From the NCBI GenBank assembly GCA_963807405.1, contig CAWEBU010000006.1, forward strand, positions 615,733 through 679,732: a stretch of 64,000 bases of DNA. The letters are read 5' to 3'. The DNA is from an uncultured Acidobacteriota bacterium. GTDB taxonomy: Bacteria > Acidobacteriota > Vicinamibacteria > Vicinamibacterales > UBA2999. Shown here piece by piece: positions 393 through 46,833 of this stretch. The position numbers and the translations under genes are program-made. Position 1 is the first letter of the stretch; each line of letters starts with the position of its first letter. Under the pieces are notes generated by a model. That model ran no database searches. It saw nothing but the letters and a program-made list of their open reading frames with translations, and had not been told where the DNA came from.

Positions 393-1711
393 GCGCGCCC
401 ACCGCGCTCAGCCGCCGCCTCACCCGCCGGGACCTCATCGTCTACGGGCTGCTGTTCATCGGTCCGCTCGCGCCCGTCGGCGTCTTCGGCGTGCTCGATG
501 CACGCACCAACGGCGCGGTCGCGCTCGTCTACGTGGCCGCCACTCTGGCGATGGCGTTCACGGCCTGGTCGTACGCCCAGATGTCGCGCGTCGTTCCGCA
601 CGCCGGATCGGTGTTTGCCTACGCCAGCCGCGGCATCGGACCCACCGCCGGCTTCTTCGCCGGCTGGCTGGCGATGCTCGACTACGTCCTCATCCCGTCG
701 GTGGCCTATCTCTTCTCGGGCATCGCCCTGCACGCGCTCGTGCCGGCGGTGCCGGCCTGGGTCTTCACGGTCGTGGCCTTCGCCGGCACGACCGCGCTGA
801 ACCTGGCCGGGGTGCGCGTGGCGGCGCGAGCCGGGCTGGTCGTGCTGGTCGCCGAGCTGATCGTGCTCGCCGTGTTCCTCGCCGCCGGCGTCGTCGTCCT
901 GGCCACGAGCGGCGGCGCGCGCCCGTGGCTGTCGCCGTTCACGAGCCTGGCCGTGCCAGACGCCTCGCTCGTGATGAACGCCGTGTCGGTGGCGGTGCTG
1001 TCGTATCTCGGCTTCGACGCCATTGCCTCCTTCGCCGAAGAGAGTGAAGGCGACGCCCGGCACGTCGGCCAGGCCATCGGCATCTGCCTGGCGGTGGCCG
1101 GCGTGGCGTTCGTGGCCCAGACCTGGATGGTGGCGGTCCTGAGCGATCAGGTGCCGGACGCCCTGGCGGCCGCGCCTGCCACCCAGGGCACGGCGTTCTA
1201 CGACGTCACACGAACCGCTGTGGGCGCCTGGCTCGCCGTGGTCCTCGCCGTGACCAAGGCCATCGGCCCGATGTTCGCCGCGATGACCGGGCAGGCCGCG
1301 GCGGCGCGCCTGCTCTACGGCATGGCGCGCGATGGCCGTCTGCCGGGCCAGCTCGCCGCGGTGGACCAGGTGCGCGGCGTGCCGCGGACGGCGCTCCTCG
1401 TCATCGGCGCGGTGACCCTCGTCGTGAGCGTCTGGGCCGCCCGCCGTCCGGATGGCCTCGGTGTGCTCGTCGCGATCGTGGACGTCGGCGCGCTCTCGGC
1501 CTTTCTGCTGCTGCACGTCTCAGTGGTCGGGTTCTTCGTGCTGCGGCGCCGCGCCGCTGCCGGCGCGCGACACACCGTCGTGCCGGCACTCGGCGCGGGC
1601 GTGATCGTCTGGGTCCTCGTCGAGGCGTCGGGCTTCGCGCAGCTGGCGGCGGCCGCGTGGCTGGCGGTCGGCATCGGCGTGTGGGTCGTCATGCGGCGGC
1701 GGCCGGCGTGA
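389..1711 (+). CDS. APC-superfamily amino acid/polyamine permease
   Basis: 440-aa ORF that is hydrophobic throughout (about 12 helices). The N-terminus RDLIVYGLLFIGPLAPVGVFG and overall pattern are typical of APC permeases. Confidence 0.85.
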   Translation: MSAPTALSRRLTRRDLIVYGLLFIGPLAPVGVFGVLDARTNGAVALVYVAATLAMAFTAWSYAQMSRVVPHAGSVFAYASRGIGPTAGFFAGWLAMLDYVLIPSVAYLFSGIALHALVPAVPAWVFTVVAFAGTTALNLAGVRVAARAGLVVLVAELIVLAVFLAAGVVVLATSGGARPWLSPFTSLAVPDASLVMNAVSVAVLSYLGFDAIASFAEESEGDARHVGQAIGICLAVAGVAFVAQTWMVAVLSDQVPDALAAAPATQGTAFYDVTRTAVGAWLAVVLAVTKAIGPMFAAMTGQAAAARLLYGMARDGRLPGQLAAVDQVRGVPRTALLVIGAVTLVVSVWAARRPDGLGVLVAIVDVGALSAFLLLHVSVVGFFVLRRRAAAGARHTVVPALGAGVIVWVLVEASGFAQLAAAAWLAVGIGVWVVMRRRPA

Positions 1712-1741
1712 CGGCCTTCTCGCTTGAAGGGCCGCGCGGGT

Positions 1742-1757
1742 TGGCACGAGTGATGCG
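1742..1757 (+). promoter_or_regulatory. candidate sigma54 -24/-12 element (TGGCACGagtgaTGCG) upstream of the L,D-transpeptidase gene
   Basis: GG-N10-GC spacing is correct and the -12 element has one mismatch to TTGCW. It would give a nearly leaderless transcript if the start is GTG 1770. Confidence 0.3.
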
Positions 1758-3437
1758 GTGATAGTCGATGTGACGATACGTCCGAGGTTCGCCTGGTGGC
1801 TGACGGTGGCGTGGCTCTCCACCTCCGCCTGCGGGCGTGAGGTCGTACCGGCTGCGCCGCCGGCCGCCGTCCAGGCGGGGCCCCAGCGCGTCGTCGCCTC
1901 GGTGACCGGCGCGGTCACCGAGGTGGCGGTGACGCTCGGCGCTTCGAGTGCGGAGGCTGTGAGCGTGGGCGCGCTCTACGACGCACGCGCGGGAGCGCTG
2001 GCGTGGGCGGCGGCCGACGGGGCGCCGCCCGGTGCGGCCGAGGCGATGCTGGCGCGGTTGCACGACGCCGCGCGCCATGCGCTCGCCCCTGCTGCCTACC
2101 TGACGCCCGCCGTGGTCAGCGCCCTCGACGGATCCGCGGGCGATGCCACCAGGCGTGATGTCGCCCTGACGCTGGCAGTGCTGCGTTACATGGGCCACCT
2201 GCATCTCGGCCGGATCGATCCGCGCAGCCTCGGCCGGCGTTTCCAGGTGCGGCCCGAGCCGCACGACTTTCCGCAACTGCTGGCCAGGGCGCTGGCCGAC
2301 GGACGTGTGGTCGAGGTCATCGACGCCCTGGCGCCACCGTTTGCCGTCTACGGTCAGCTCGTGGACGCCCTCGCACGCTATCGCGCGCTGGCGGCGCTGG
2401 CGCTCCCGGCGGTGCCCTCGGCCGTGGAGGCCGTTCGCGCCGGTGACCGCTATCCGGGCGTCCCGGCCCTGGCGCGTCGGCTGGTGGCGTTCGGCGATCT
2501 CGACTCGGCGGCTGCGTGGTCCGCCGGCAGCACCCTCTATGACGCGGCCCTGAGCACGGCGGTGGTCCGCTTCCAGACCCGCCACGGCCTCACGCCAGAC
2601 GGCGTCGTCGGCCGGCGGACGCTGGCGGCCTTGCAGGTGCCGCTGTCGGCGCGGGTCGCGCAGATCGAGTTCGCGCTCGAGCGCCTGCGGTGGCTGCCCG
2701 ATCTGGGCGACCGGCGCCTGGTGCTCGTGAACATCCCGATGTTCCGGCTGTGGGCGTGGGAAGCCGGACAGCTCGTTGCGCCGCCCGTCGTGTCGATGGA
2801 GGTCATCGTCGGCCGGGCGATGCGGAGCGAGACGCCGGTGTTCGTCGAGCAGATGGAAGAGGTCGTCTTCTGGCCGTACTGGAACGTGCCGCGGTCGATC
2901 GTGCTCGGGGAAGTGCTGCCGGCGGTGGACCGCGACCCCGGCTACCTGGCGCGCCAGCAGATGGAGATCGTGCGGGGATGGGGCGACGACGCCCCGGCGG
3001 TCGCGCCGGACGCGGCGGCGCTGACAGACCTCGCGGCCGGCCGGCTGCGCCTGCGGCAGCGGCCGGGGCCCCACAATTCGCTCGGCCTGGTGAAGTTCAT
3101 GTTCCCCAACAACGACAGTATCTACATGCACGACACGCCGGCGCCGCTGCTCTTTGCGCGTGAACGTCGCGACTTCAGCCACGGCTGCATCCGGGTCCAG
3201 GACCCGACGGCGCTGGCGGCGTGGGTGCTGGCCGGGAGAGCCGGCTGGACGAAGCCGGTCATCGAGGCGGCGATGGCCAGGAGCACGTCGCGCTCGGTGC
3301 CCGTGGCCGCACCGATCGATGTCGTGCTGTTCTACTCGACCGCCGCCGTCAGCCCCGACGACGGCGCGCTCCACTTCGCGAACGACATCTACGGGCACGA
3401 CGCCACGCTGGCGCGTGCGCTCACGCGCGCGCGGTAG
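1758..3437 (+). CDS. L,D-transpeptidase (YcbB/LdtD-like) with peptidoglycan-binding domain
   Basis: PG_binding_1-like RFQTRHGLTPDGVVGRRTLAAL, then the YkuD catalytic motif RDFSHGCIRV. The true start may be GTG 1770 (lipoprotein-like ...WLSTSAC). Confidence 0.85.
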   Translation: MIVDVTIRPRFAWWLTVAWLSTSACGREVVPAAPPAAVQAGPQRVVASVTGAVTEVAVTLGASSAEAVSVGALYDARAGALAWAAADGAPPGAAEAMLARLHDAARHALAPAAYLTPAVVSALDGSAGDATRRDVALTLAVLRYMGHLHLGRIDPRSLGRRFQVRPEPHDFPQLLARALADGRVVEVIDALAPPFAVYGQLVDALARYRALAALALPAVPSAVEAVRAGDRYPGVPALARRLVAFGDLDSAAAWSAGSTLYDAALSTAVVRFQTRHGLTPDGVVGRRTLAALQVPLSARVAQIEFALERLRWLPDLGDRRLVLVNIPMFRLWAWEAGQLVAPPVVSMEVIVGRAMRSETPVFVEQMEEVVFWPYWNVPRSIVLGEVLPAVDRDPGYLARQQMEIVRGWGDDAPAVAPDAAALTDLAAGRLRLRQRPGPHNSLGLVKFMFPNNDSIYMHDTPAPLLFARERRDFSHGCIRVQDPTALAAWVLAGRAGWTKPVIEAAMARSTSRSVPVAAPIDVVLFYSTAAVSPDDGALHFANDIYGHDATLARALTRAR

Positions 3438-3458: not shown

Positions 3459-3998
3459 TTACCAGCGCCGGACGCGGCCGGTGTCGATGTGTACGAAGTT
3501 CGACGCGGGGTAGTAGCCGACGCCGCCGCCCTGCACGTCGAGGGCGGCCGCACGCAAAGTCGCCAGCGGCACACCGGCCACCCGGACATCGATCGCCTGA
3601 CCGACCATGTGGAGGCTGCGCGCGGCGACACCGCCGCTGCGCTCGCGCAGCGCGGCATTGGTGTGCGGCGAGCGGTAGCCGGAGATGACCTCGAACGCGT
3701 GGCGGGTATCGAGACGCCGCGCGATCTGGTGGAGAAGATCGATCAGGCCCGGATCGATGGGATGGATGTCGCCGGTGCGGAAGTCGCGGAGCAGCCGGTT
3801 CACCGCGCTCAGTGCCTCGGGTAGGTAGCGCTCGCCCTCGGCGTACTCGATGGTGAGTGCCTCGCCTGTGTGGAGGTGCCGGAAGCCGATCGCGCGCGGC
3901 ACCGCGGCGTGGGCCCGCGCCGGGCGGAACGCCAGGGCGCCGCCGGCAATCACGAAAGACTTGAGGAAACGTCGGCGGTTCTGGCGCGGGAACGACAA
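3459..3998 (-). CDS. DUF882 / peptidase M15A family protein (YcbK/MepK-like), Tat signal
   Basis: Has the Tat-type signal RRRFLKSFVIAGGALAF. Also has YRSPHTNAAL...SLHMVGQAIDVRV...NFVHIDTG, typical of DUF882 zinc peptidases. Confidence 0.85.
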   Translation of the reverse strand: MSFPRQNRRRFLKSFVIAGGALAFRPARAHAAVPRAIGFRHLHTGEALTIEYAEGERYLPEALSAVNRLLRDFRTGDIHPIDPGLIDLLHQIARRLDTRHAFEVISGYRSPHTNAALRERSGGVAARSLHMVGQAIDVRVAGVPLATLRAAALDVQGGGVGYYPASNFVHIDTGRVRRW

Positions 3999-4214: not shown

Positions 4215-4487
4215 ACCGCTCTCCTTGTGGGCGACGGGGGACGTCCGGTGGCCGTCTGGCCAAGCGCCGCCACCACGTCAGGTGGGAGCAAGCCTCGCGC
4301 CAGCGGCAATGGCACACAGGGTGGACCGCGTGAGCCGTCGTTCCCCCGGAGTGGTGATGAACTCGCAGTCGCGCGAAGAATCCGGCGGGCACGTGGCCTC
4401 GGCCCGCGCAGTCCGCCCCGTTCATTCGCCACCGCAGACGTTCCGCGGCTGTGGCACGGGACGTGGATAGGACCGCCGGGGGGCCGC

Positions 4488-5249
4488 ATGATTCGTGACC
4501 GAAAATGGATGGCAGCACTGGTGGTGACAGGCGTCTTTCTGGCGGCGGACGGCCAGGCACAGACGCAGAGCCGCTGCGCCGATTGTCACTTCGCCAATCC
4601 GGGCTCGGTGTCGCCCGGTCACTTGTCGGAGTGGGATCTCTCGAGCCACGGCCGCCAGAACGTGGGCTGCGAAACCTGCCACGGCGGCGATCCGCGATCC
4701 TTCGAGCCGTTCGTCGCCCACCAGGGCATCCTGGCGCGCACGAATCCGGCCAGTCCCGTGCATCCAACCAATCTGCCGAAGACCTGCGGTGCGTGTCACA
4801 CGGGCCCGTTCCTGGCGTTCCAGCGCAGCAAGCACTACGAGCTGCTGCGGGCGGGCGACAGGAGCGCTCCGACCTGCGCGACCTGCCACGGCGAGGCCGC
4901 CGCGTTCCGGCTGTCGCCGAAAGCCCTCGAAGCGCAGTGCGCGTCCTGTCACGGTGCCGGCAAGATCGCCCCGCGTCCCGAGTACGCGGCGCAGGCGCGC
5001 ATGGCCGATGAAGGCCTGCGCGAGGCGCGCGCGCTGCTCAAGGACGCGCGCAACGCCATCGGGCGGGTGAAGGACACGGCGCGACGGGCGTCGCTCGAGC
5101 AGGCCGCGCAGCAGGCCGAAGTGCCGATCATCGAAGCCACGCAGGCCGGCCATCAGTTCGTCTTCGACCAGCTCGCGGAGCGGCTGAACACCGCGCGCGC
5201 CCGTCTGGCCGCGCTCTTCGAGCGCCTCGCCAACCCCGACGTGCCATAG
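4488..5249 (+). CDS. pentaheme c-type cytochrome, exported
   Basis: Start placed at ATG 4488 (signal peptide MIRDRKWMAALVVTGVFLAA). Five CXXCH motifs: CADCH, CETCH, CGACH, CATCH, CASCH. The 3870-4487 part of the track ORF is Arg/Pro-rich and looks non-coding. Confidence 0.75.
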   Translation: MIRDRKWMAALVVTGVFLAADGQAQTQSRCADCHFANPGSVSPGHLSEWDLSSHGRQNVGCETCHGGDPRSFEPFVAHQGILARTNPASPVHPTNLPKTCGACHTGPFLAFQRSKHYELLRAGDRSAPTCATCHGEAAAFRLSPKALEAQCASCHGAGKIAPRPEYAAQARMADEGLREARALLKDARNAIGRVKDTARRASLEQAAQQAEVPIIEATQAGHQFVFDQLAERLNTARARLAALFERLANPDVP

Positions 5250-5339
5250 CATGCCGCCGACGCCGGGACGCTGACGGCCGGGCCGTTCCCGCTCGACCGC
5301 CTTCGCGCATGCGGCGATGGCGGGTCGTTCAGGCGCGGG

Positions 5340-6278
5340 TCAGACCGGCACGCTGGCCGGGGCGGTTTCCGTGCGGCGGCGGTCGGTCACCTTCGGGTGC
5401 ACCGCCATCACCGGACAGCCGGCGCGGCGGATGACGTCATTGGTCGTCGAGCCGAAGGCCATCAGGTCGATGGCGCCGCGGCCGCGCACGCCCATCACGA
5501 CGACGTCGGCCCGGCCTTCCTGTGCCGCTTCGAGGATGCACTGGCTGGGCTTCCCGAAGGCGACGTGCTCCTTGATATGGCACCACTCGCGCACCTCCGG
5601 CGACACCGCGGCGGCCAGCGTCTCCCGGGCGTGCGTCTCACCCAGCCGGCGATACTCGCCGGTGTCGAGCGCGCCGAACTCGCCCGAGGCCGGCACCGGC
5701 TCGACGACGTAGAGCAGCGTGACCTGGCCGTCGGTCTCCCGCGCCAGTGACAGGGCGAAGGTCAAGGCGTCGGCCGATGCGGCCGAACCATCGACCGGGC
5801 ACAGAATCCGCGAGAAGAGCACGCTCGTCTCCGGATGCGCCGCCGGCGGCACGACCATCACCGGGCAGGGCGCGCGCCGCACCACTTTCTCGGCGACCGA
5901 CCCGAGCAGCAGGTGCTCGACGCCGCCCCGGCCATGCGTGCCGATGACGAGCAGGTCGGCCTCCTGCTCCTCGGCCGCTGCCAGGATCTCCCGTGCGGCG
6001 TGGCCGCCTCGGATCGCCGTCTCGGTGACGACGCCCGTGGCGCGGGCGCGGTCGCGGGCAGCCGCCAGGTCGAGCTGCGCCTGCTCGCGCTGCTCCTCGA
6101 ACAGCCGCACGTCGACGGGGATCTCGCCGTAGGGCGCCATGATCGGCATCGGCGGATCGATGTGCAGCAGGTGCAGCGTGGCGTCGAAGTGGCCGGCCAG
6201 GGCCGTGGCGTAGACCTCGGCCTTGGTCGAGACCTCTGAGAAATCGGTCGGACAGAGGATGCGAGAAAGGCTCAACAT
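5340..6278 (-). CDS. universal stress protein, tandem UspA domains
   Basis: ATG 6278 is preceded by AGGAGG. There are two USP domains, each with a G-x2-G-x9-G-S/T motif (VIGTHGRGGVEHLLLGSVAEKV; VMGVRGRGAIDLMAFGSTTNDV). Confidence 0.85.
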   Translation of the reverse strand: MLSLSRILCPTDFSEVSTKAEVYATALAGHFDATLHLLHIDPPMPIMAPYGEIPVDVRLFEEQREQAQLDLAAARDRARATGVVTETAIRGGHAAREILAAAEEQEADLLVIGTHGRGGVEHLLLGSVAEKVVRRAPCPVMVVPPAAHPETSVLFSRILCPVDGSAASADALTFALSLARETDGQVTLLYVVEPVPASGEFGALDTGEYRRLGETHARETLAAAVSPEVREWCHIKEHVAFGKPSQCILEAAQEGRADVVVMGVRGRGAIDLMAFGSTTNDVIRRAGCPVMAVHPKVTDRRRTETAPASVPV

Positions 6279-6324
6279 GCGCCGACCTCCTGTGTGCCCA
6301 CGACTCTGGGGCCACCTCGTACCG

Positions 6325-6340
6325 AGCAACGGCCGTGCCG
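6325..6340 (-). promoter_or_regulatory. sigma54 -24/-12 promoter (CGGCACGgccgTTGCT) for the USP gene
   Basis: The minus-strand sequence matches TGGCACG-N4-TTGCW except at the first base. The GC of -12 lies about 45 nt upstream of ATG 6278. A sigma54 activator gene is immediately upstream. Confidence 0.55.
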
Positions 6341-15901: not shown

Positions 15902-16248
15902 TGGAAAACGATTCGCGCCCCTGCCTCATCCTTACCACCTGGCCGGCCGACCGCTCCGTGGCGCCGCTGGCGCAGGCGATCGTCGAGGCCCGGCTGGCGG
16001 CCTGCGTGCACGTGGCCGCGGCCGGCCGCTCGGTGTATCGCTGGGAGGGCGCGGTCGAGAGCGCCGACGAGCACCAGGTCGTCTTCAAGACGACCCGGGC
16101 CCGGGTGGCGGCCCTCGAGGCCCGCGTGCGGGCGGCGCATCCGTATGCGCTGCCGGAATGGCTGGTGGTGGAGGTGAGCGGCGGCGACGACTATCTGGCC
16201 TGGATCGCCGACAGCGTCGCCGCTCCCGAGAGCCCGGACCCCGGCTAG
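15901..16248 (+). CDS. cutA: divalent-cation tolerance protein CutA
   Basis: CLILTTWPA...IVEARLAACVHV...SVYRWEGAVESADEHQVVFKT...HPYALPEW is typical CutA1. The start is probably GTG 15901. The track start at 15832 adds an unlikely extension. Confidence 0.8.
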   Translation: MENDSRPCLILTTWPADRSVAPLAQAIVEARLAACVHVAAAGRSVYRWEGAVESADEHQVVFKTTRARVAALEARVRAAHPYALPEWLVVEVSGGDDYLAWIADSVAAPESPDPG

Positions 16249-16322
16249 CCGAGCGCCTGGGCGACGACGTCGGCTAGCCGAGCGCCTGGGCGACGACGTC
16301 GGCTAGCCGAGCGCCTGGGCGA
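16243..16322. repeat. 29-bp tandem repeat, 2.8 copies (GGCTAGCCGAGCGCCTGGGCGACGACGTC)
   Basis: Copies at 16243-16271, 16272-16300 and 16301-16322 (partial). Copy 1 holds the cutA TAG stop. Copy 3 holds the stop and last 6 codons of the convergent PLP-enzyme gene. Confidence 0.9.
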
Positions 16323-36407: not shown

Positions 36408-37151
36408 CTACAGGTTGCTCGCCCGCACCTTCAGCTCCGCCCGGCGCGGGTCCGACAGCTGGCGGGGCCGCGCCGCGCCGCCGGCGGTGGTGGCGAGGCG
36501 CACCAGGGTTTCGAGCGTGCAGTAGATGGCGCCAATCCAGACCGGCGGGTTGGTGGTCGTGAGCCCGAACCACGGCTCCACCGTGTAGTAGCGCCAGCCG
36601 CCGAGCGCGGTGCCCTAGGCTTCGATGGCGAAGGCGAACAGGAAGAGCGTGGCGCACAGCCGCGGGTTGGCGCTGAAGCGGCAGGTAGGCCGCGAAGGCG
36701 GCGAACCACACGCAGCCCGAACGTGTCGTAGCCGCGCCAGGCGCCGTAGGCCACGACGGCCCCGAACAGGATGCGCCACCGCCCGCGGCAGCCAGGCGGG
36801 GGCGGCGCGGCTCATGCGGGCGGCGGCCGCGAAGACCAGGGCGTGGCCGGCGGGGATGAAGAGCGGGAGGTTGCCGAGCCGGTAGTCGTAGAGCCCCCAC
36901 ACGTCCTTCAGGAAGACCTCGCCGGCCGTGGCCAGCACCACGCAGGCGGCCAGCTCCATCCGGTGGCGGGGCGCCGAGTGGGCGGCGATCCACAGCAGCG
37001 CCGCCCAGCTCCAGGCCGAGACGACCGGCTGGGCCCAGGGCAGGGCAGTGGCGTCGAGCGCGATGCCGAGCGCGAGGGTGGCGACGACGAGGACCACGAC
37101 CCGGTGCGCGTGCGCCGCGACGGCCGGCGCCTGGTTCAGGGCAACCGGCAT
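36408..37151 (-). pseudogene. polytopic membrane protein, heavily disrupted (about 3 frameshifts at 36675-36790 plus in-frame TAG at 36615-36617)
   Basis: The frame-X product turns Arg-rich (RAVAHPVRGRRGLRRLARLRH). The alternative frames read LFGAVVAYGAWRGYDTFGL and CVWFAAFAAYL. After the TAG the same frame continues as GTALGGWRYYTVEPWFGLTTTNPPVWIGAIYCTLETL. Confidence 0.5.
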
Positions 37152-37179
37152 GCAGGCAGAATAATACGGAGGACCCGCC

Positions 37180-37596
37180 ATGGCCACCTTCACCGACTAC
37201 CTCTGGTTCACGACCGCCAACCGTCAGGAGTTCGTGCGCATCACCGACCAGGTGCGCGCCATCGTCGAGAAGAGCGGCATCCGCGACGGCATGGTGCTCG
37301 TGTCGGCCATGCACATCACGGCCGGCGTCTACGTGAACGACTGGGAGGACGGCTTGATCCACGACTTCCAGGTCTGGCTCGAGAAGCTGGCGCCGGCCGG
37401 GCTGCCGTATCGCCATCACCAGACCGGGGAGGACAACGCCGACGCCCACCTGAAGCGGACGCTGATGGGGCATCAGGTGATCGTGCCGATCACCAACGGC
37501 GACCTCGACCTCGGGCCGTGGGAGCAGGTGTTCTACGCCGAGTTCGACGGCCAGCGGAAGAAGCGGGTGGTCGTCAAGGTGATGGGCGAGCGGTAG
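37180..37596 (+). CDS. YjbQ/UPF0047 family protein (secondary thiamine-phosphate synthase-like)
   Basis: [36 protein letters not shown] and [14 protein letters not shown] are typical of the YjbQ family. Confidence 0.9.
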
Positions 37597-37694
37597 CGCG
37601 CGGGCGGCGCCTGGTGCCGATCCGTCGTGTCTGGCCCGGGGCACTCCCGACCGAGGGCCCGCCCATGTTACGATTCGTGGTTCTCACCACTCGC

Positions 37695-37769
37695 GTCCCC
37701 GTCGTCCAGAGGTCAGGACGTGGCCCTTTCAAGGCTAAAACACGGGTTCGAATCCCGTCGGGGACGCCA
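37695..37769 (+). tRNA. tRNA-Glu (anticodon TTC)
   Basis: 75-nt cloverleaf: acceptor GTCCCCG/CGGGGAC, D-stem GTCC/GGAC, anticodon stem TGGCC/GGCTA with loop CTTTCAA, T-arm ACGGG-TTCGAAT-CCCGT, encoded CCA. Close to E. coli tRNA-Glu. Confidence 0.9.
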
Positions 37770-37780
37770 ACTCCCTCGCA

Positions 37781-38125
37781 AGCTCGGTCGTTGGCCGTCC
37801 CGCGACGGTCTTCAGGCACGCCGCGTCAGGCAGGCCTGACGCGAGCGGGCACGAATCCCGCGGTCGGCCCACACGCCCTGTTAGAGCTCGGTCGTTGGCC
37901 GTCCCGCGACGGTCTTCAGGCACGCCGCGTCAGGCAGGCCTGACGCGAGCGGGCACGAATCCCGCGGTCGGCCCACACGCCCTGTCAGAGCTCGGTCGTT
38001 GGCCGTCCCGCGACGGTCTTCAGGCATCGCCGCGTCAGGCAGGCCTGACGCGAGCGGGCACGAATCCCGCGGTCGCACACGCCTTGTCATATCTCGGTCG
38101 TTGGCCGTCCCTCGACGGTCGACGG
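37781..38125. repeat. about 104-bp tandem repeat, 3 full copies plus a diverged partial copy, each with three GC-rich hairpins
   Basis: Unit starts at 37781, 37885, 37989 and 38091. Copies 1 and 2 differ at one base. Hairpins: GGCCGTC-ccgc-GACGGTC, CGCGTCAGG-cagg-CCTGACGCG and GCGGG-cacgaat-CCCGC. Confidence 0.9.
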
Positions 38126-38235
38126 GCACGACCGGATTGCCGTCTCTGCCGTGAGGGACGGGCTCCCGAATCACCGCTTGTCCTCATAGTCCGGGGTTGC
38201 CGCATGGTGGTCCCGGCCTGAAAAGGGGACGAGTG

Positions 38236-39465
38236 ATGCTGCCCACGACTAGCCCAACCGAGATTCTGGACCAACTGGATCCCTGGGGATTCGGCGCCAG
38301 CGGCGGCGACGACCAGTCGGCTGTCATCGCGCGCTACGAGCCGATCGACGAACCCGTGGATGACGACGAGCCGTTCCTCGACGCCCTGCCGGAACTGGCG
38401 GCCGTGGCGGCCGGCGTCCCGGCGGCCAGTGCCTTCCCCATGCCCCTCCCAGCGGCCGACAGCACGCAGGGACTAGGGTTGCCGTTCCCACGTCACATGG
38501 CGGCCGTGCTGGCCCTCTTCGGCGCCGTCATCGTGGCGCAGGGCTTCTACATCGGCTTCTCGCTGACCGGCGAGGCCTCGGCCCGGCCGGATGTGGGCGA
38601 AGTGGTGGTCTCGTCCCACCCCACGGGCGCGCAGGTGCGCGTGGACGGCGACATGCACGGCACCACGCCCCTCGTCCTGCCGCTCGTCGCTGGCCGCCAC
38701 CGCGTGGAGCTGGTCGGCGCGTCAGGCGACCCCACCTTCCTCGAGGCTGACGTGGTGGCCGGCGAGCGCTGGACCCGGCACGTCGTGCTGGCCCCGGCCG
38801 CCGTGGAGACGCCCCAGGCCGGCGCGCTCCGCGTTGACACCGGCCGGACACCGGCGCAGGTGCTCATCGACGGCGAGCCGGCGGGCGCCGCGCCCGTCAC
38901 GCGCGCCAACCTTGCTGCTGGTGCCCACGCCGTGCGCGTCGAGTTCCGTAACGGCACGTCGATCGAACGCACGGTCACGGTGCCGGCCAGCGAGACCCTG
39001 TCGCTCGTGCTGGACGCGCCGGCCACGCGGCCGGTCGCGCCGGCCGCACCCGCCTCGGGCTGGCTGCGCGTGGACGCGCCGTTCGAGGTCCAGGTCTTCC
39101 GCGCCGGTGACCTGGTGGGCTCGAGCCTCAGCGAACGCATCATGCTGCCGGCGGGCGGCCACGACCTCGTACTGGTCAGTGCCGCGCTCGGCTACCGTGC
39201 CACCGTCAAGGCCAACGTCGTGACCGGCAAGCTCGTGCCGCTCGTCATCGACACCCCGCGCGTGCCGGTGGCCGTCAACGCGCAGCCGTGGGCCGAGTTG
39301 ATCGTCGATGGCCGCGTGCACGGCGACACGCCGCTCGCCAACGTGATGCTGCCGATTGGCGTCCACGACATCGTGCTGCGCCATCCCGAACTCGGGGAGC
39401 GCCGGCAGACCGTGACCGTGCGTGCCAGCGGCGCCAACCGTGTTTCGGCCGACCTGCGCCGATAG
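38236..39465 (+). CDS. PEGA-domain membrane-anchored protein
   Basis: Start at ATG 38236. Acidic cytoplasmic N-terminus, one TM helix (AAVLALFGAVIVAQGFYIGF), then about 4 PEGA repeats (for example SSHPTGAQVRVDGDMHGTTPLVL and VNAQPWAELIVDGRVHGDTPL). Confidence 0.8.
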   Translation: MLPTTSPTEILDQLDPWGFGASGGDDQSAVIARYEPIDEPVDDDEPFLDALPELAAVAAGVPAASAFPMPLPAADSTQGLGLPFPRHMAAVLALFGAVIVAQGFYIGFSLTGEASARPDVGEVVVSSHPTGAQVRVDGDMHGTTPLVLPLVAGRHRVELVGASGDPTFLEADVVAGERWTRHVVLAPAAVETPQAGALRVDTGRTPAQVLIDGEPAGAAPVTRANLAAGAHAVRVEFRNGTSIERTVTVPASETLSLVLDAPATRPVAPAAPASGWLRVDAPFEVQVFRAGDLVGSSLSERIMLPAGGHDLVLVSAALGYRATVKANVVTGKLVPLVIDTPRVPVAVNAQPWAELIVDGRVHGDTPLANVMLPIGVHDIVLRHPELGERRQTVTVRASGANRVSADLRR

Positions 39466-39469
39466 GACC

Positions 39470-40510
39470 ATGTCCATGCTGGGCCGGATCACCATCGCCG
39501 CCGCCCTGGCGTGGACGCTGGCCGCGGTGCCGCCCGTCCTCGCGCAGCCAAAGGCCCCGCCGGCGTCGCGCCTGCAGGCCGGCATCGCCCTCTACGCCGC
39601 GGCGTCCTACGACGAGGCCCTCACGGCGCTCGACGCCGCCCGCGCCGTCGACCTGCCGCTCGACGATCGCGTGACGCTCGACCGGCACCGCATGCTGTGC
39701 CTGCTGGCCCTCGGCCGCATGGCCGCGGCCGACGAGGCCGCCGCCAGCCTGCTCGAAAGCAGGCCCGACTTCGTGCTCACCGCGCACGACGCCGCCCCCC
39801 GCGTGCGCGCGATGTTCGACGAGACGAGGCGGCGCGTGCTGCCGGCCGTGGTCCGGCGCGTCTACAGCGAGGCCAAACGGGCTTACGACAACGGCCGGTA
39901 CGCCGAGGCGGGCGACGGATTCACGCGCCTCGCCGGGTTGCTCGCGGATCCGCACGTGGCGGCGGCCGACCCCGCCTTTGCCGACCTCGGCACGCTGACC
40001 GAGGGCTTCCTGCAGTTGACCGCGGCGGCGATCGAGCGCCAAGCCGCCCAGCGCGACTACGACACGGTGCAGGCGGCGCTCGCGGTGTTGCAACCGAGTG
40101 GCGCGTTCGCTGCCGTCGCGGCGCCGGCTCCGGCCGTGATGTCCGCCCCGGCGCTCGAAGCGGCGCCGTCGGCCGCATCTGCGGCCGCAGCGCTGCCGTT
40201 CACCCCGCTCGGCATCTTCACCTACGACTGGCGCGACAAGGACGTGGTGCCGCCGGTGGCCGTCGACCAGGGCGTCTCGGGCTGGTGGGGCTCGATGGGC
40301 GCGCCCGCCGCTGGCGCCCCGCTCGGCGCCATCGAGGTGGTGGTGGACGAGGATGGCCGGGTGGTGGACGCGCGCATCTACCAGTCGGTCAACCGCATCT
40401 ACGACACGGTGCTGCTCGAGTCGGTCAAGCAGTGGCGCTATCAGCCGGCGACGAAAGACGGGCGTCCGGTGAAGTACCGCCGCATCACCGGCGTCGTCGC
40501 GGGACGCTGA
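39470..40510 (+). CDS. exported protein with TonB C-terminal-like domain
   Basis: Start at ATG 39470 with a signal peptide. The C-terminus VVDARIYQSVNRIYDTVLLESVKQWRYQPATKDGRPVKYR resembles the TonB_C fold. Confidence 0.65.
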   Translation: MSMLGRITIAAALAWTLAAVPPVLAQPKAPPASRLQAGIALYAAASYDEALTALDAARAVDLPLDDRVTLDRHRMLCLLALGRMAAADEAAASLLESRPDFVLTAHDAAPRVRAMFDETRRRVLPAVVRRVYSEAKRAYDNGRYAEAGDGFTRLAGLLADPHVAAADPAFADLGTLTEGFLQLTAAAIERQAAQRDYDTVQAALAVLQPSGAFAAVAAPAPAVMSAPALEAAPSAASAAAALPFTPLGIFTYDWRDKDVVPPVAVDQGVSGWWGSMGAPAAGAPLGAIEVVVDEDGRVVDARIYQSVNRIYDTVLLESVKQWRYQPATKDGRPVKYRRITGVVAGR

Positions 40511-46212: not shown

Positions 46213-46833
46213 TTGAGCGGCACGCCGAAGCTGAAGGTGGCGCCACCGCCACCGCCCCCGCCGCCGCCCCTGCCGCCGCCGCCACCGGTGTCGGTGCGTG
46301 GCAATCAGGACACCAAGGCGCCGACCCGAACGGCCGCGCAGAAGGCCTCGTTCGGCAAGTTCGTGGCCGCGGCCAAGGCGTCGGCGGCCAAGCACGCCGG
46401 CGCTCCGGCCATGCCGCCGCCTCCACCGGCCGTCAAGACGAAGCCGGCCGCCCAGAGCCAGCCGGCGAGCGCCGGTCAGGCCGCCGCCGTCTCCACCGGC
46501 AAGGCGAGCAGCCCGGCGCCGACCAGCAAGACGCCAGCGGAGGCCACGCCCGTCACCGCGGCGCCGCCGGCCAGGACGTCGGCGAAGGCCAAGTCCGCCA
46601 GTCCGGCGCCCGCGGCGAAGACCTCCGCGAAGGCCCCGGTCAAGGCCGCGGTCAAGGCCGCGGCGAAGGGCAAGGCGAAGCCGGCCAAGGCGGCGGGCAA
46701 GCCAGCCGCGAAGGCGGGCTCTCCCGGCAAGTCCGCCGCTGCGGCGCGCCAGAAGAGCGCGGCCAAGCCGGCGGCCAGGAAAGCGTCAACCGGCAAGGCC
46801 GCGGCCCGGGGCCCGGCCGGAAAGCGGCGCTAG
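46213..46833 (+). CDS. Pro-rich / Lys-Ala-rich low-complexity protein (histone-H1/AlgP-like tail)
   Basis: The frame is open from 46012 and the start is uncertain. TTG 46213 follows GGAAGG. Contains PPPPPPPPPLPPPPP, then repeated AKxxAKPAAK-type basic segments. Confidence 0.4.
   Translation: MSGTPKLKVAPPPPPPPPPLPPPPPVSVRGNQDTKAPTRTAAQKASFGKFVAAAKASAAKHAGAPAMPPPPPAVKTKPAAQSQPASAGQAAAVSTGKASSPAPTSKTPAEATPVTAAPPARTSAKAKSASPAPAAKTSAKAPVKAAVKAAAKGKAKPAKAAGKPAAKAGSPGKSAAAARQKSAAKPAARKASTGKAAARGPAGKRR

Follow-up and report, generated by a model that had tools for sequence, protein, structure and literature searches.

Results

A structured repeat array directly follows tRNA-Glu

The window analyzed here, 64 kb of the genome of an uncultured Vicinamibacterales bacterium (Acidobacteriota), carries a head-to-tail array of a structured unit directly 3′ of its tRNA-Glu(UUC) gene. 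The array spans 37781–~38135 and consists of three intact copies of a 102–104-bp unit plus one degenerate copy. This element is real, conserved and lineage-specific, it is tied to tRNA-Glu, and it is amplified in the window genome. We regard the array as the local amplification of a lineage-specific tRNA-Glu companion of ~80 nt. We see about an even chance that the unit is a structured 3′ trailer of the tRNA-Glu transcript, with its hairpin serving as a stop, an exonuclease barrier or an insulator before the next gene.

The array is by far the strongest repeat of the window. Tandem Repeats Finder (TRF) places it at 37781–38120 with a period of 104, 3.3 copies, 96% matches and a score of 615, and a 41-nt pattern from the unit core occurs three times in the window versus 0 occurrences expected from shuffled sequences. 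The initial annotation of this DNA had described a ~104-bp tandem repeat 3′ of tRNA-Glu with copies starting at 37781, 37885, 37989 and 38091, and TRF, ARAGORN and Rfam together confirm that array. The stated unit length is exact for copies 1 and 2, but copy 3 measures 102 nt. Likewise, the stated distance of 12 nt after the CCA is correct in that the unit starts at the twelfth base, although the gap itself is 11 nt. Copies 1 and 2 do differ at a single base, as had been claimed, and the copy at 38091, described as diverged and partial, proved to be a degenerate unit that retains its first hairpin, H1 (38103–38120), has had the second, H2, deleted, and ends in a relic, GACGGGCACGACC, at 38121–38133. 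The conserved leader of the downstream gene, which encodes a PEGA-domain protein, begins where this unit fades (~38135). The open reading frames (ORFs) over the array had been taken for artefacts and are non-coding: they overlap the tRNA, the copies differ by indels whose lengths are not multiples of three, and the region evolves by compensatory base-pair changes. An Rfam scan matched only the tRNA, in keeping with the earlier failure to assign the unit to a known RNA family.

The unit is conserved beside tRNA-Glu in related genomes

We gathered 21 loci (L numbers below) by anchoring on the PEGA protein and by two scans, one a pattern scan through GTDB species genomes and the other a scan of JGI metagenomes. 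The ~80-nt core was found in 10 of the 21, in ten other Vicinamibacterales assemblies and in 1–2 copies (Table 1), and a unit relic is present in L005. All copies lie directly 3′ of tRNA-Glu or of a remnant of its 3′ end (12–22 nt; 4 nt in the decayed copy L016b), and the element starts 11–14 nt past the CCA end. This linkage holds for the PEGA-anchored loci, for the genome-wide pattern scan (5 loci) and for the metagenome scan (1 locus), which settles in favor of the initial annotation its question of whether the unit is conserved and tRNA-linked elsewhere. The trailer motif (A/T)CTC(C/A)CTCGC is also kept 3′ of the tRNA or its remnant in all related loci. A covariance model of the unit (R1), built from 12 units, detected no further copy when run over the 64-kb window and ~170 kb of related loci, and dispersed elements of the repetitive extragenic palindrome (REP) or miniature inverted-repeat transposable element (MITE) kind were rejected on this basis. 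The unit was not found in IMG/VR viral contigs, phage genomes or plasmid collections.

The module of promoter, tRNA and unit is inverted with respect to the PEGA gene in both L012 and L021, and with respect to the gene for the YjbQ-family protein in L012 as well; the unit still lies 3′ of the tRNA. It is thus a partner of the tRNA rather than of the PEGA gene. Inverted tRNA-Glu genes without a unit occur in L006, L007 and L018–L020. The inverted tRNA-Glu, together with the unit where one is present, lies at 5701–5868 in L012, 9586–9867 in L021, 5776–5851 in L006, 5334–5409 in L007 and 857–932 in L019. These inversions of the tRNA-Glu module suggest recombination between inverted copies resembling attachment (att) sites. 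Separately, L018 (1–68) and L020 (1–67) are short metagenome contigs that end inside the tRNA-Glu gene; such breaks fit population heterogeneity or repeats downstream of the tRNA.

Copy number varies among these loci. The window, L012 and L021 are empty sites without mobile genes and yet hold four, one and two units, respectively; the units are therefore chromosomal and not cargo. In every array, the damaged copy is the one farthest from the tRNA: unit 4 of the window (W4), L002b, L003b, L013a′, L014b and L021b.

Covariation supports one extended hairpin

An alignment of 14 units defines a core running from GCTCGGTCG to GAATCCC with 32 invariant columns, while the spacers between copies and the outer flanks cannot be aligned. 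PEGA proteins beside the units are 47–82% identical. A core that stays alignable against such a background argues for selection on it.

The central hairpin predicted by RNAalifold, H2, is longer than the one originally proposed; it is a 12-bp G+C stem with a bulged A in every unit. H2 is the sole helix with covariation support. Five of its pairs show changes on both sides (for example, U-A to A-U or C-G, A-U to G-C, and G-C to A-U or C-G), and both the pairing and the bulged A are retained across three or four independent stem variants. Taken over all of the tested structure, pairing reaches 95.7% of cells, compared with 25–45% when the partners are slid, and the observed covariation score was reached by none of 500 shuffles. 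H2 alone folds at −22.7 kcal/mol (z = −4.7). Covariation and compensatory changes identify the second hairpin of the initial annotation as a selected structure.

The initial annotation had proposed three hairpins per unit, the third resembling a tRNA T arm. The inverted repeats are present as quoted (37793–37810, 37822–37843 and 37845–37861), but the minimum-free-energy fold of one unit is a single long imperfect hairpin, and the three-hairpin model with its T arm was superseded by the extended H2 on the strength of covariation. The T-arm-like motif GCGGGCACGAATCCCGC does match the T arm at 13 of 15 positions; its stem, however, is paired in 77% of cells, with the outer pairs holding in only 5/14 and 10/14 sequences. 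As sequence, the 13-mer GGGCACGAATCCC hardly varies, and its first three bases form part of H2. The two nucleotides 5′ of it pair with the H2 5′ strand in 14/14 and 11/14 sequences, with changes on both sides. Because its bases covary with the 5′ side of H2, the T-like stem is not the selected structure.

In H1, the CGTC/GACG core is invariant and the outer pair 19–34 varies (GU in 11 units, GC in 1, UG in 1). This pair and pair 51–71 of H2 (GU in 1) are wobble pairs on the tRNA strand. G·U and U·G pairs on that strand would be A·C mismatches on the other, which favors an RNA read in the direction of the tRNA. The prediction also contains a closing helix, in which TCGGTC pairs with GGCACGA, and a hairpin of 3 bp, both invariant. 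The blocks that would form the proposed helices P1, H1 and H1b show no covariation. The H2 stem is followed by GGCACGAAUCCC. A reading of GGGCACGAATCCCGC as a sigma-54 promoter was rejected, the −12 GC not being conserved across loci.

The tRNA-Glu locus is an integration hot spot

Recombination scars at the tRNA were among the roles first suggested for the array, and this idea has a real basis in the relatives. Six foreign contexts (L002, L017, L014, L015, L011/L013b and L003) lie directly against a remnant of the tRNA-Glu 3′ end, and the trailer and a unit come next. The remnant, TCGGGGACGCCA, is 12–15 nt long (22 nt in L003), and a partial copy of the tRNA 3′ end of this kind marks the distal boundary of foreign DNA in L002, L003, L011, L013, L014, L015 and L017; none lies inside the window, where no second exact TCGGGGACGCCA was found in the 64 kb. 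Site-specific integration is expected to leave pieces of tRNA genes at the ends of islands (PMC9897764). The right ends of the inserts have TCCA(A)CTCG(TG/CA) in common. The locus is an integration hot spot.

The foreign DNA differs among loci. Mobile-type genes (primase/helicase-like, AAA_25 and helix-turn-helix (HTH)) lie upstream of the remnant in L002, and transposase genes lie upstream of the PEGA gene in L005. The 6 kb of upstream ORFs in L015 gave no informative Pfam match. In L013, a HigB/HigA cassette (~1420–2250, minus strand; a HigB-like protein and an HTH antitoxin) sits between 1.5 units and a remnant-plus-unit; L011 shares the HigA end of L013. In L016, a cassette of MazE-like and PemK/MazF genes with a small lipoprotein-like gene lies between unit copies (5401–6122), which belong to a direct repeat of ~118 nt extending from GCCA to ~20 nt beyond the unit. 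This repeat reaches the 3′ ends of two paralogous minus-strand genes (4586–5038 and ~6250–6340, both ending ...GSC*), so the duplicated segment once held a gene together with the unit. In L003, tandem repeats of 18–23 nt (AGACCCAGACCCCATGGA) were noted at 3554–3620; the tRNA-Glu remnant that marks the end of the island follows ~150 nt further on.

L006 is the only locus with a serine recombinase beside tRNA-Glu: the gene for this large protein (4308–5810) abuts the tRNA 3′ end upstream of the PEGA gene, and no unit is present. Low-GC DNA with a recombinase-like ORF occupies the same position in L019 (1–891). A second kind of element therefore uses tRNA-Glu without the unit.

Origin of the unit

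The tRNA is in register with the array. GTCCC occurs at 37695, 37797, 37901, 38005 and 38107, with 102 nt separating the GTCCC of the tRNA from that of unit 1, and the T arm at 37742 is followed by T-like motifs at 37845, 37949 and 38054, the first interval being 103 nt. The initial annotation had suggested that the unit may derive from the 3′ region of the tRNA plus its trailer. This derivation is consistent with the T-arm match (p ~ 0.03 by shuffles) and with an unbiased fitting alignment of the whole tRNA-Glu gene onto the array (window, p = 0.05; L021, p = 0.025; corresponding values with tRNA-Lys as a control, 0.09 and 0.76). Alignment of the tRNA-Glu gene to the unit yielded colinear blocks (GTCCC, TCAGG(C)ACG and the T arm), with z scores of 2.8–3.6 for a start chosen after the fact. 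The resemblance of the spacers to the acceptor strand and trailer, in contrast, is persuasive by eye but not significant in shuffle tests (p 0.04–0.8), and the spacers were rejected as decayed acceptor and trailer sequence. Descent of the unit from a tandem tRNA-Glu gene copy is plausible on these similarities, which are suggestive only.

Relation to known systems

The closest architectural match is provided by the RtT repeats of Escherichia coli (RF00391; rttR/tpr locus). Both sets of repeats run head-to-tail from a tRNA 3′ end on the tRNA strand in about three copies of 95–96% identity. At E. coli tyrT/tyrV (L022, 905–1463), the array comprises 3.1 copies with a period of 178 and includes the final 19 nt of tyrV. 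As a positive control, the RtT model found four matches there (133–137 bits; gathering score 45 bits), whereas it found none in window positions 36500–39500 even at E ≤ 10. The two share no sequence or structure homology, and the units differ in length (104 nt here versus 178 nt). In contrast to RtT, the repeats described here contain no clear copy of the tRNA 3′ end (only the T-arm match and whole-gene fit given above) and no small ORF such as tpr; they occur in Acidobacteriota at tRNA-Glu, and most relatives carry a single copy. Since the architecture is shared but the RtT model failed, the array is an analogue of RtT and not a member of that family. In the passage of PMC4986893 that cites Bosl and Kersten (1991), RtT is an RNA released from tRNA operon transcripts.

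Resemblances to other systems are partial. Like intrinsic terminators, the 3′ stem-loops of tRNA operons and the 3′ external transcribed spacer of leuZ (3′ETS-leuZ), the unit has a stable G+C hairpin soon after the mature 3′ end, with a stem kept by compensatory changes and a variable loop. Lalaouna and colleagues are said to have reported in 2015 that tRNA-precursor 3′ trailers can be functional in their own right. A canonical intrinsic terminator was nevertheless rejected, and the earlier suggestion of stacked terminators is weakened: the G+C stem-loop is present but the U-tract is absent. The unit is also arrayed, and its ~50 nt of invariant flanks exceed what a terminator needs. Like att repeats and island remnants, the units occupy a site of integration in relatives, where 12–22-nt remnants border foreign DNA and units are duplicated on both sides of small toxin-antitoxin inserts. 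The window array differs in having no cargo, integrase or tRNA remnant between copies, and the repeated sequence lies beyond the tRNA and contains a covarying hairpin.

Similarity to tRNA itself is seen in the T-arm match of GGGCACGAATCCC (13/15) and the conserved GTCCC at the tRNA phase. The unit has no conserved acceptor stem, its T-like stem lacks covariation support, and its loop, CACGAAT, lacks the T54/Ψ55 positions. ARAGORN found only the genuine tRNA-Glu and tRNA-Lys and no tRNA in the units. A tRNA or tRNA-Sec-like gene was rejected (18.5 bits against a gathering score of 47, E = 3.1), and the sequence 3′ of the T-like motif is not conserved. Integron attC sites (RYYYAAC/GTTRRRY boxes) were rejected: GTT stands at the candidate position in just 4/14 units, an AAC partner is lacking, and the gene tables of the loci list no integron integrase. 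Repeats of the ToxI-like type III antitoxin kind were rejected because the downstream gene encodes a PEGA protein, the units of L012 and L021 point away from it, and most loci are single-copy.

Features of the locus

Coordinates in the window and copy numbers in relatives are collected in Table 1. The gene table lists no mobile genes near the array, whose neighbors are the YjbQ and PEGA genes. A TonB-like gene, an ATP-binding cassette (ABC) transporter and tRNA-Lys lie 3′ of the PEGA gene. The leader 5′ of the PEGA gene (GAGGGAC...CGCTTGTCYYCATAGTCCGGGGTTGCCGCA; window 38140–38235) is common to loci with or without the unit (L001 ~330–400, L011 ~400–460, L014 ~280–360, L018/L020 ~70–160); it has no Rfam match and may be a promoter or 5′ untranslated region element. 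Elsewhere in the window, a perfect 29-nt tandem repeat (CGGCTAGCCGAGCGCCTGGGCGACGACGT, 2.8 copies, 100% identity) lies at 16242–16322. Overlapping 45-nt (2.8 copies) and 12-nt (5.9 copies) GCC/AAG-rich repeats at 46512–46680 are probably a low-complexity Ala/Lys/Pro coding repeat.

Table 1. Features of the tRNA-Glu locus in the window and number of unit copies in related loci.
Feature	Position	Strand	Support or remark
UPF0047/YjbQ-family gene	37180..37596	+	Pfam PF01894; upstream neighbor, outside the element
tRNA-Glu(UUC), CCA encoded	37695..37769	+	ARAGORN; Rfam tRNA, 66.7 bits
Trailer ACTCCCTCGCA, 11 nt	37770..37780	+	Between CCA and unit 1
Unit 1, 104 nt	37781..37884	+	TRF; unit covariance model, 104.6 bits; alignments
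Conserved core of unit 1	~37782–37860	+	Alignments
Spacer of unit 1	37862–37884	+	Not conserved among genomes
Unit 2, 104 nt	37885..37988	+	One base apart from unit 1 (GTTAG vs GTCAG)
Unit 3, 102 nt	37989..38090	+	1-nt insertion (GGCATCG), short deletion in spacer; 100.7 bits
Unit 4, degenerate	38091..38135 (end approximate)	+	Covariance model, 34.3 bits
Hairpin H1 (GGCCGTC-CCGC-GACGGTC)	37793..37810; also 37897, 38001, 38103	+	
Extended hairpin H2, 12 bp, bulged A, CAGG loop	37819..37847	+	RNAalifold
H2 in units 2 and 3	37923–37951; 38028–38056	+	
T-arm-like motif	37845..37861; also 37949, 38054	+	
PEGA-domain protein gene	38236..39465	+	PF08308; downstream neighbor, anchor for orthologous loci
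L002 / L017			~1.5 unit copies
L003			2 unit copies
L011			1 unit copy
L012			1 unit copy
L013			1.5 + 1 unit copies
L014			~1.7 unit copies
L015			1 unit copy
L016			1 + 1 unit copies
L021			2 unit copies, tandem

Discussion

In the explanation that we favor, the element would function at the RNA level, forming the 3′ trailer of the primary tRNA-Glu transcript; we infer that the array is transcribed and serves as a stop or insulator. The 12-bp G+C hairpin would end or block the transcript by pausing or termination independent of a U-tract. Alternatively, it may form a barrier to 3′ exonucleases or a processing mark. In any of these ways it would insulate the downstream gene from the strong tRNA promoter; the gene next after the unit is co-directional in the window and in L021. 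Unequal recombination or duplication at this recombination-prone site would alter the copy number, and the tRNA-proximal copy alone seems to be maintained while distal copies decay. The unit itself may stem originally from a tandem tRNA-Glu gene copy.

Several observations weigh against a trailer. Genomes with flanking proteins of ~66% identity share an identical 52-nt core, for which horizontal transfer on mobile DNA, and not purifying selection, could be responsible. The covariation derives from about four stem variants among 14 related sequences and therefore represents a handful of events, each with several coordinated substitutions. Folded as single sequences, whole cores give heterogeneous structures of no unusual stability (z −0.2 to −2.1). 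A simple stop hairpin does not account for the invariant blocks GCTCGGTCG, GTCCCNCGAC, CAGGCAC and GGGCACGAATCCC. No U-tract follows the hairpin on either strand, and a terminator scan of the array found no site. Finally, transcription through the array is assumed.

The main rival, a DNA-level explanation that we judge unlikely overall while giving it real weight, is that the unit is an attachment-site repeat lying in the attB/attP identity block of elements that target the tRNA-Glu 3′ end. The arrays would then be, with the same limited likelihood, att copies piled up by serial integration and island loss, and the conserved blocks would be recombinase sites. Such an origin would account for the six foreign contexts that abut 12–22-nt tRNA-Glu remnants followed by trailer and unit, for the units flanking HigB/HigA in L013 and MazE/MazF with the lipoprotein-like gene in L016 (with its ~118-nt direct repeat), and for the shared TCCA(A)CTCG(TG/CA) right ends. 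The mobile-type genes in L002, the transposase in L005 and the large serine recombinase in L006 also favor it, and tRNA fragments at island ends are well documented (PMC9897764). Accretion at the tRNA end further predicts the observed gradient from intact proximal to decayed distal copies, and horizontal spread would fit a near-identical core across diverged genomes. The structural evidence, however, points the other way: protein-binding DNA predicts conserved sequence, not compensatory stem changes with G·U pairs on one strand. The window copies have no tRNA 3′ remnant between them (spacer similarity p 0.04–0.8), and no integrase or cargo lies in or near the window array or that of L021; nothing was found between the window copies, and in relatives toxin-antitoxin cassettes are all that separates the copies. 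The unit is also absent from the IMG/VR viral contigs, phage and plasmid collections, and the limited locus flanks yielded no complete island that has both an integrase and an attL carrying the unit. A structured trailer and an att repeat are not mutually exclusive.

By analogy with RtT and 3′ETS RNAs, the unit might instead be a small RNA that is cut from the tRNA-Glu precursor and acts in trans, with tandem copies raising its dose; we find this doubtful. Candidate targets would be the stringent response, small RNAs (sRNAs) or a tRNA-Glu-binding protein. The architecture is that of RtT at E. coli tyrT/tyrV, base-pairing or protein binding could make use of the invariant single-stranded blocks, and the unit is colinear with the tRNA-Glu landmarks GTCCC, TCAGG(C)ACG and the T-arm-like motif. 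The RtT model, however, had no match even at E ≤ 10. Dosage is not conserved, since one copy is the rule among relatives and additional copies decay, and the lack of a conserved acceptor-like stem leaves tRNA mimicry unsupported. An undescribed Vicinamibacterales family of tRNA-Glu-derived structured RNAs, cut from the precursor and acting as a decoy or sponge for an sRNA or a tRNA-Glu-binding protein with copy number tuning the dose, is comparably improbable.

Neutral decay, in which the units would be degenerate tandem tRNA-Glu pseudogenes without present function, is very unlikely. The period of 102–104 nt does equal a 75-nt tRNA plus a 27–29-nt spacer, with the tRNA in register, and the tRNA-Glu fit (p = 0.05 in the window and 0.025 in L021) compares favorably with the tRNA-Lys control (p = 0.09 and 0.76). 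An origin from tRNA is compatible with later exaptation, though, and is therefore no argument for neutrality. The core is conserved across genomes where the flanks are not, compensatory changes preserve the hairpin, and neither ARAGORN nor the Rfam tRNA model recognizes the units (best hit tRNA-Sec, 18.5 bits against a gathering score of 47). That an assembly artefact inflated the copy number is hardly credible, despite the single base separating copies 1 and 2: copies 3 and 4 are distinct in sequence, the ~350-bp array lies inside a 3.7-Mb contig, and the independent assemblies L021 (2), L003 (2) and L014 (~1.7) also carry tandem copies.

As tRNA-linked trailer repeats at a hot spot of integration, the array belongs to an already known kind of system and does not point to a new one. 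It is a second, unrelated structured repeat array fused to a bacterial tRNA 3′ end, the first being the long-known and poorly understood RtT repeats of E. coli, and it provides an example from a barely studied phylum. The covariation-supported RNA motif can be used as a model to annotate Vicinamibacterales genomes. It also marks a tRNA-Glu hot spot of toxin-antitoxin cassettes and islands, which helps in mapping islands and in explaining assembly breaks. If the unit does act as an RNA in trans, it would be a functional counterpart of E. coli RtT.

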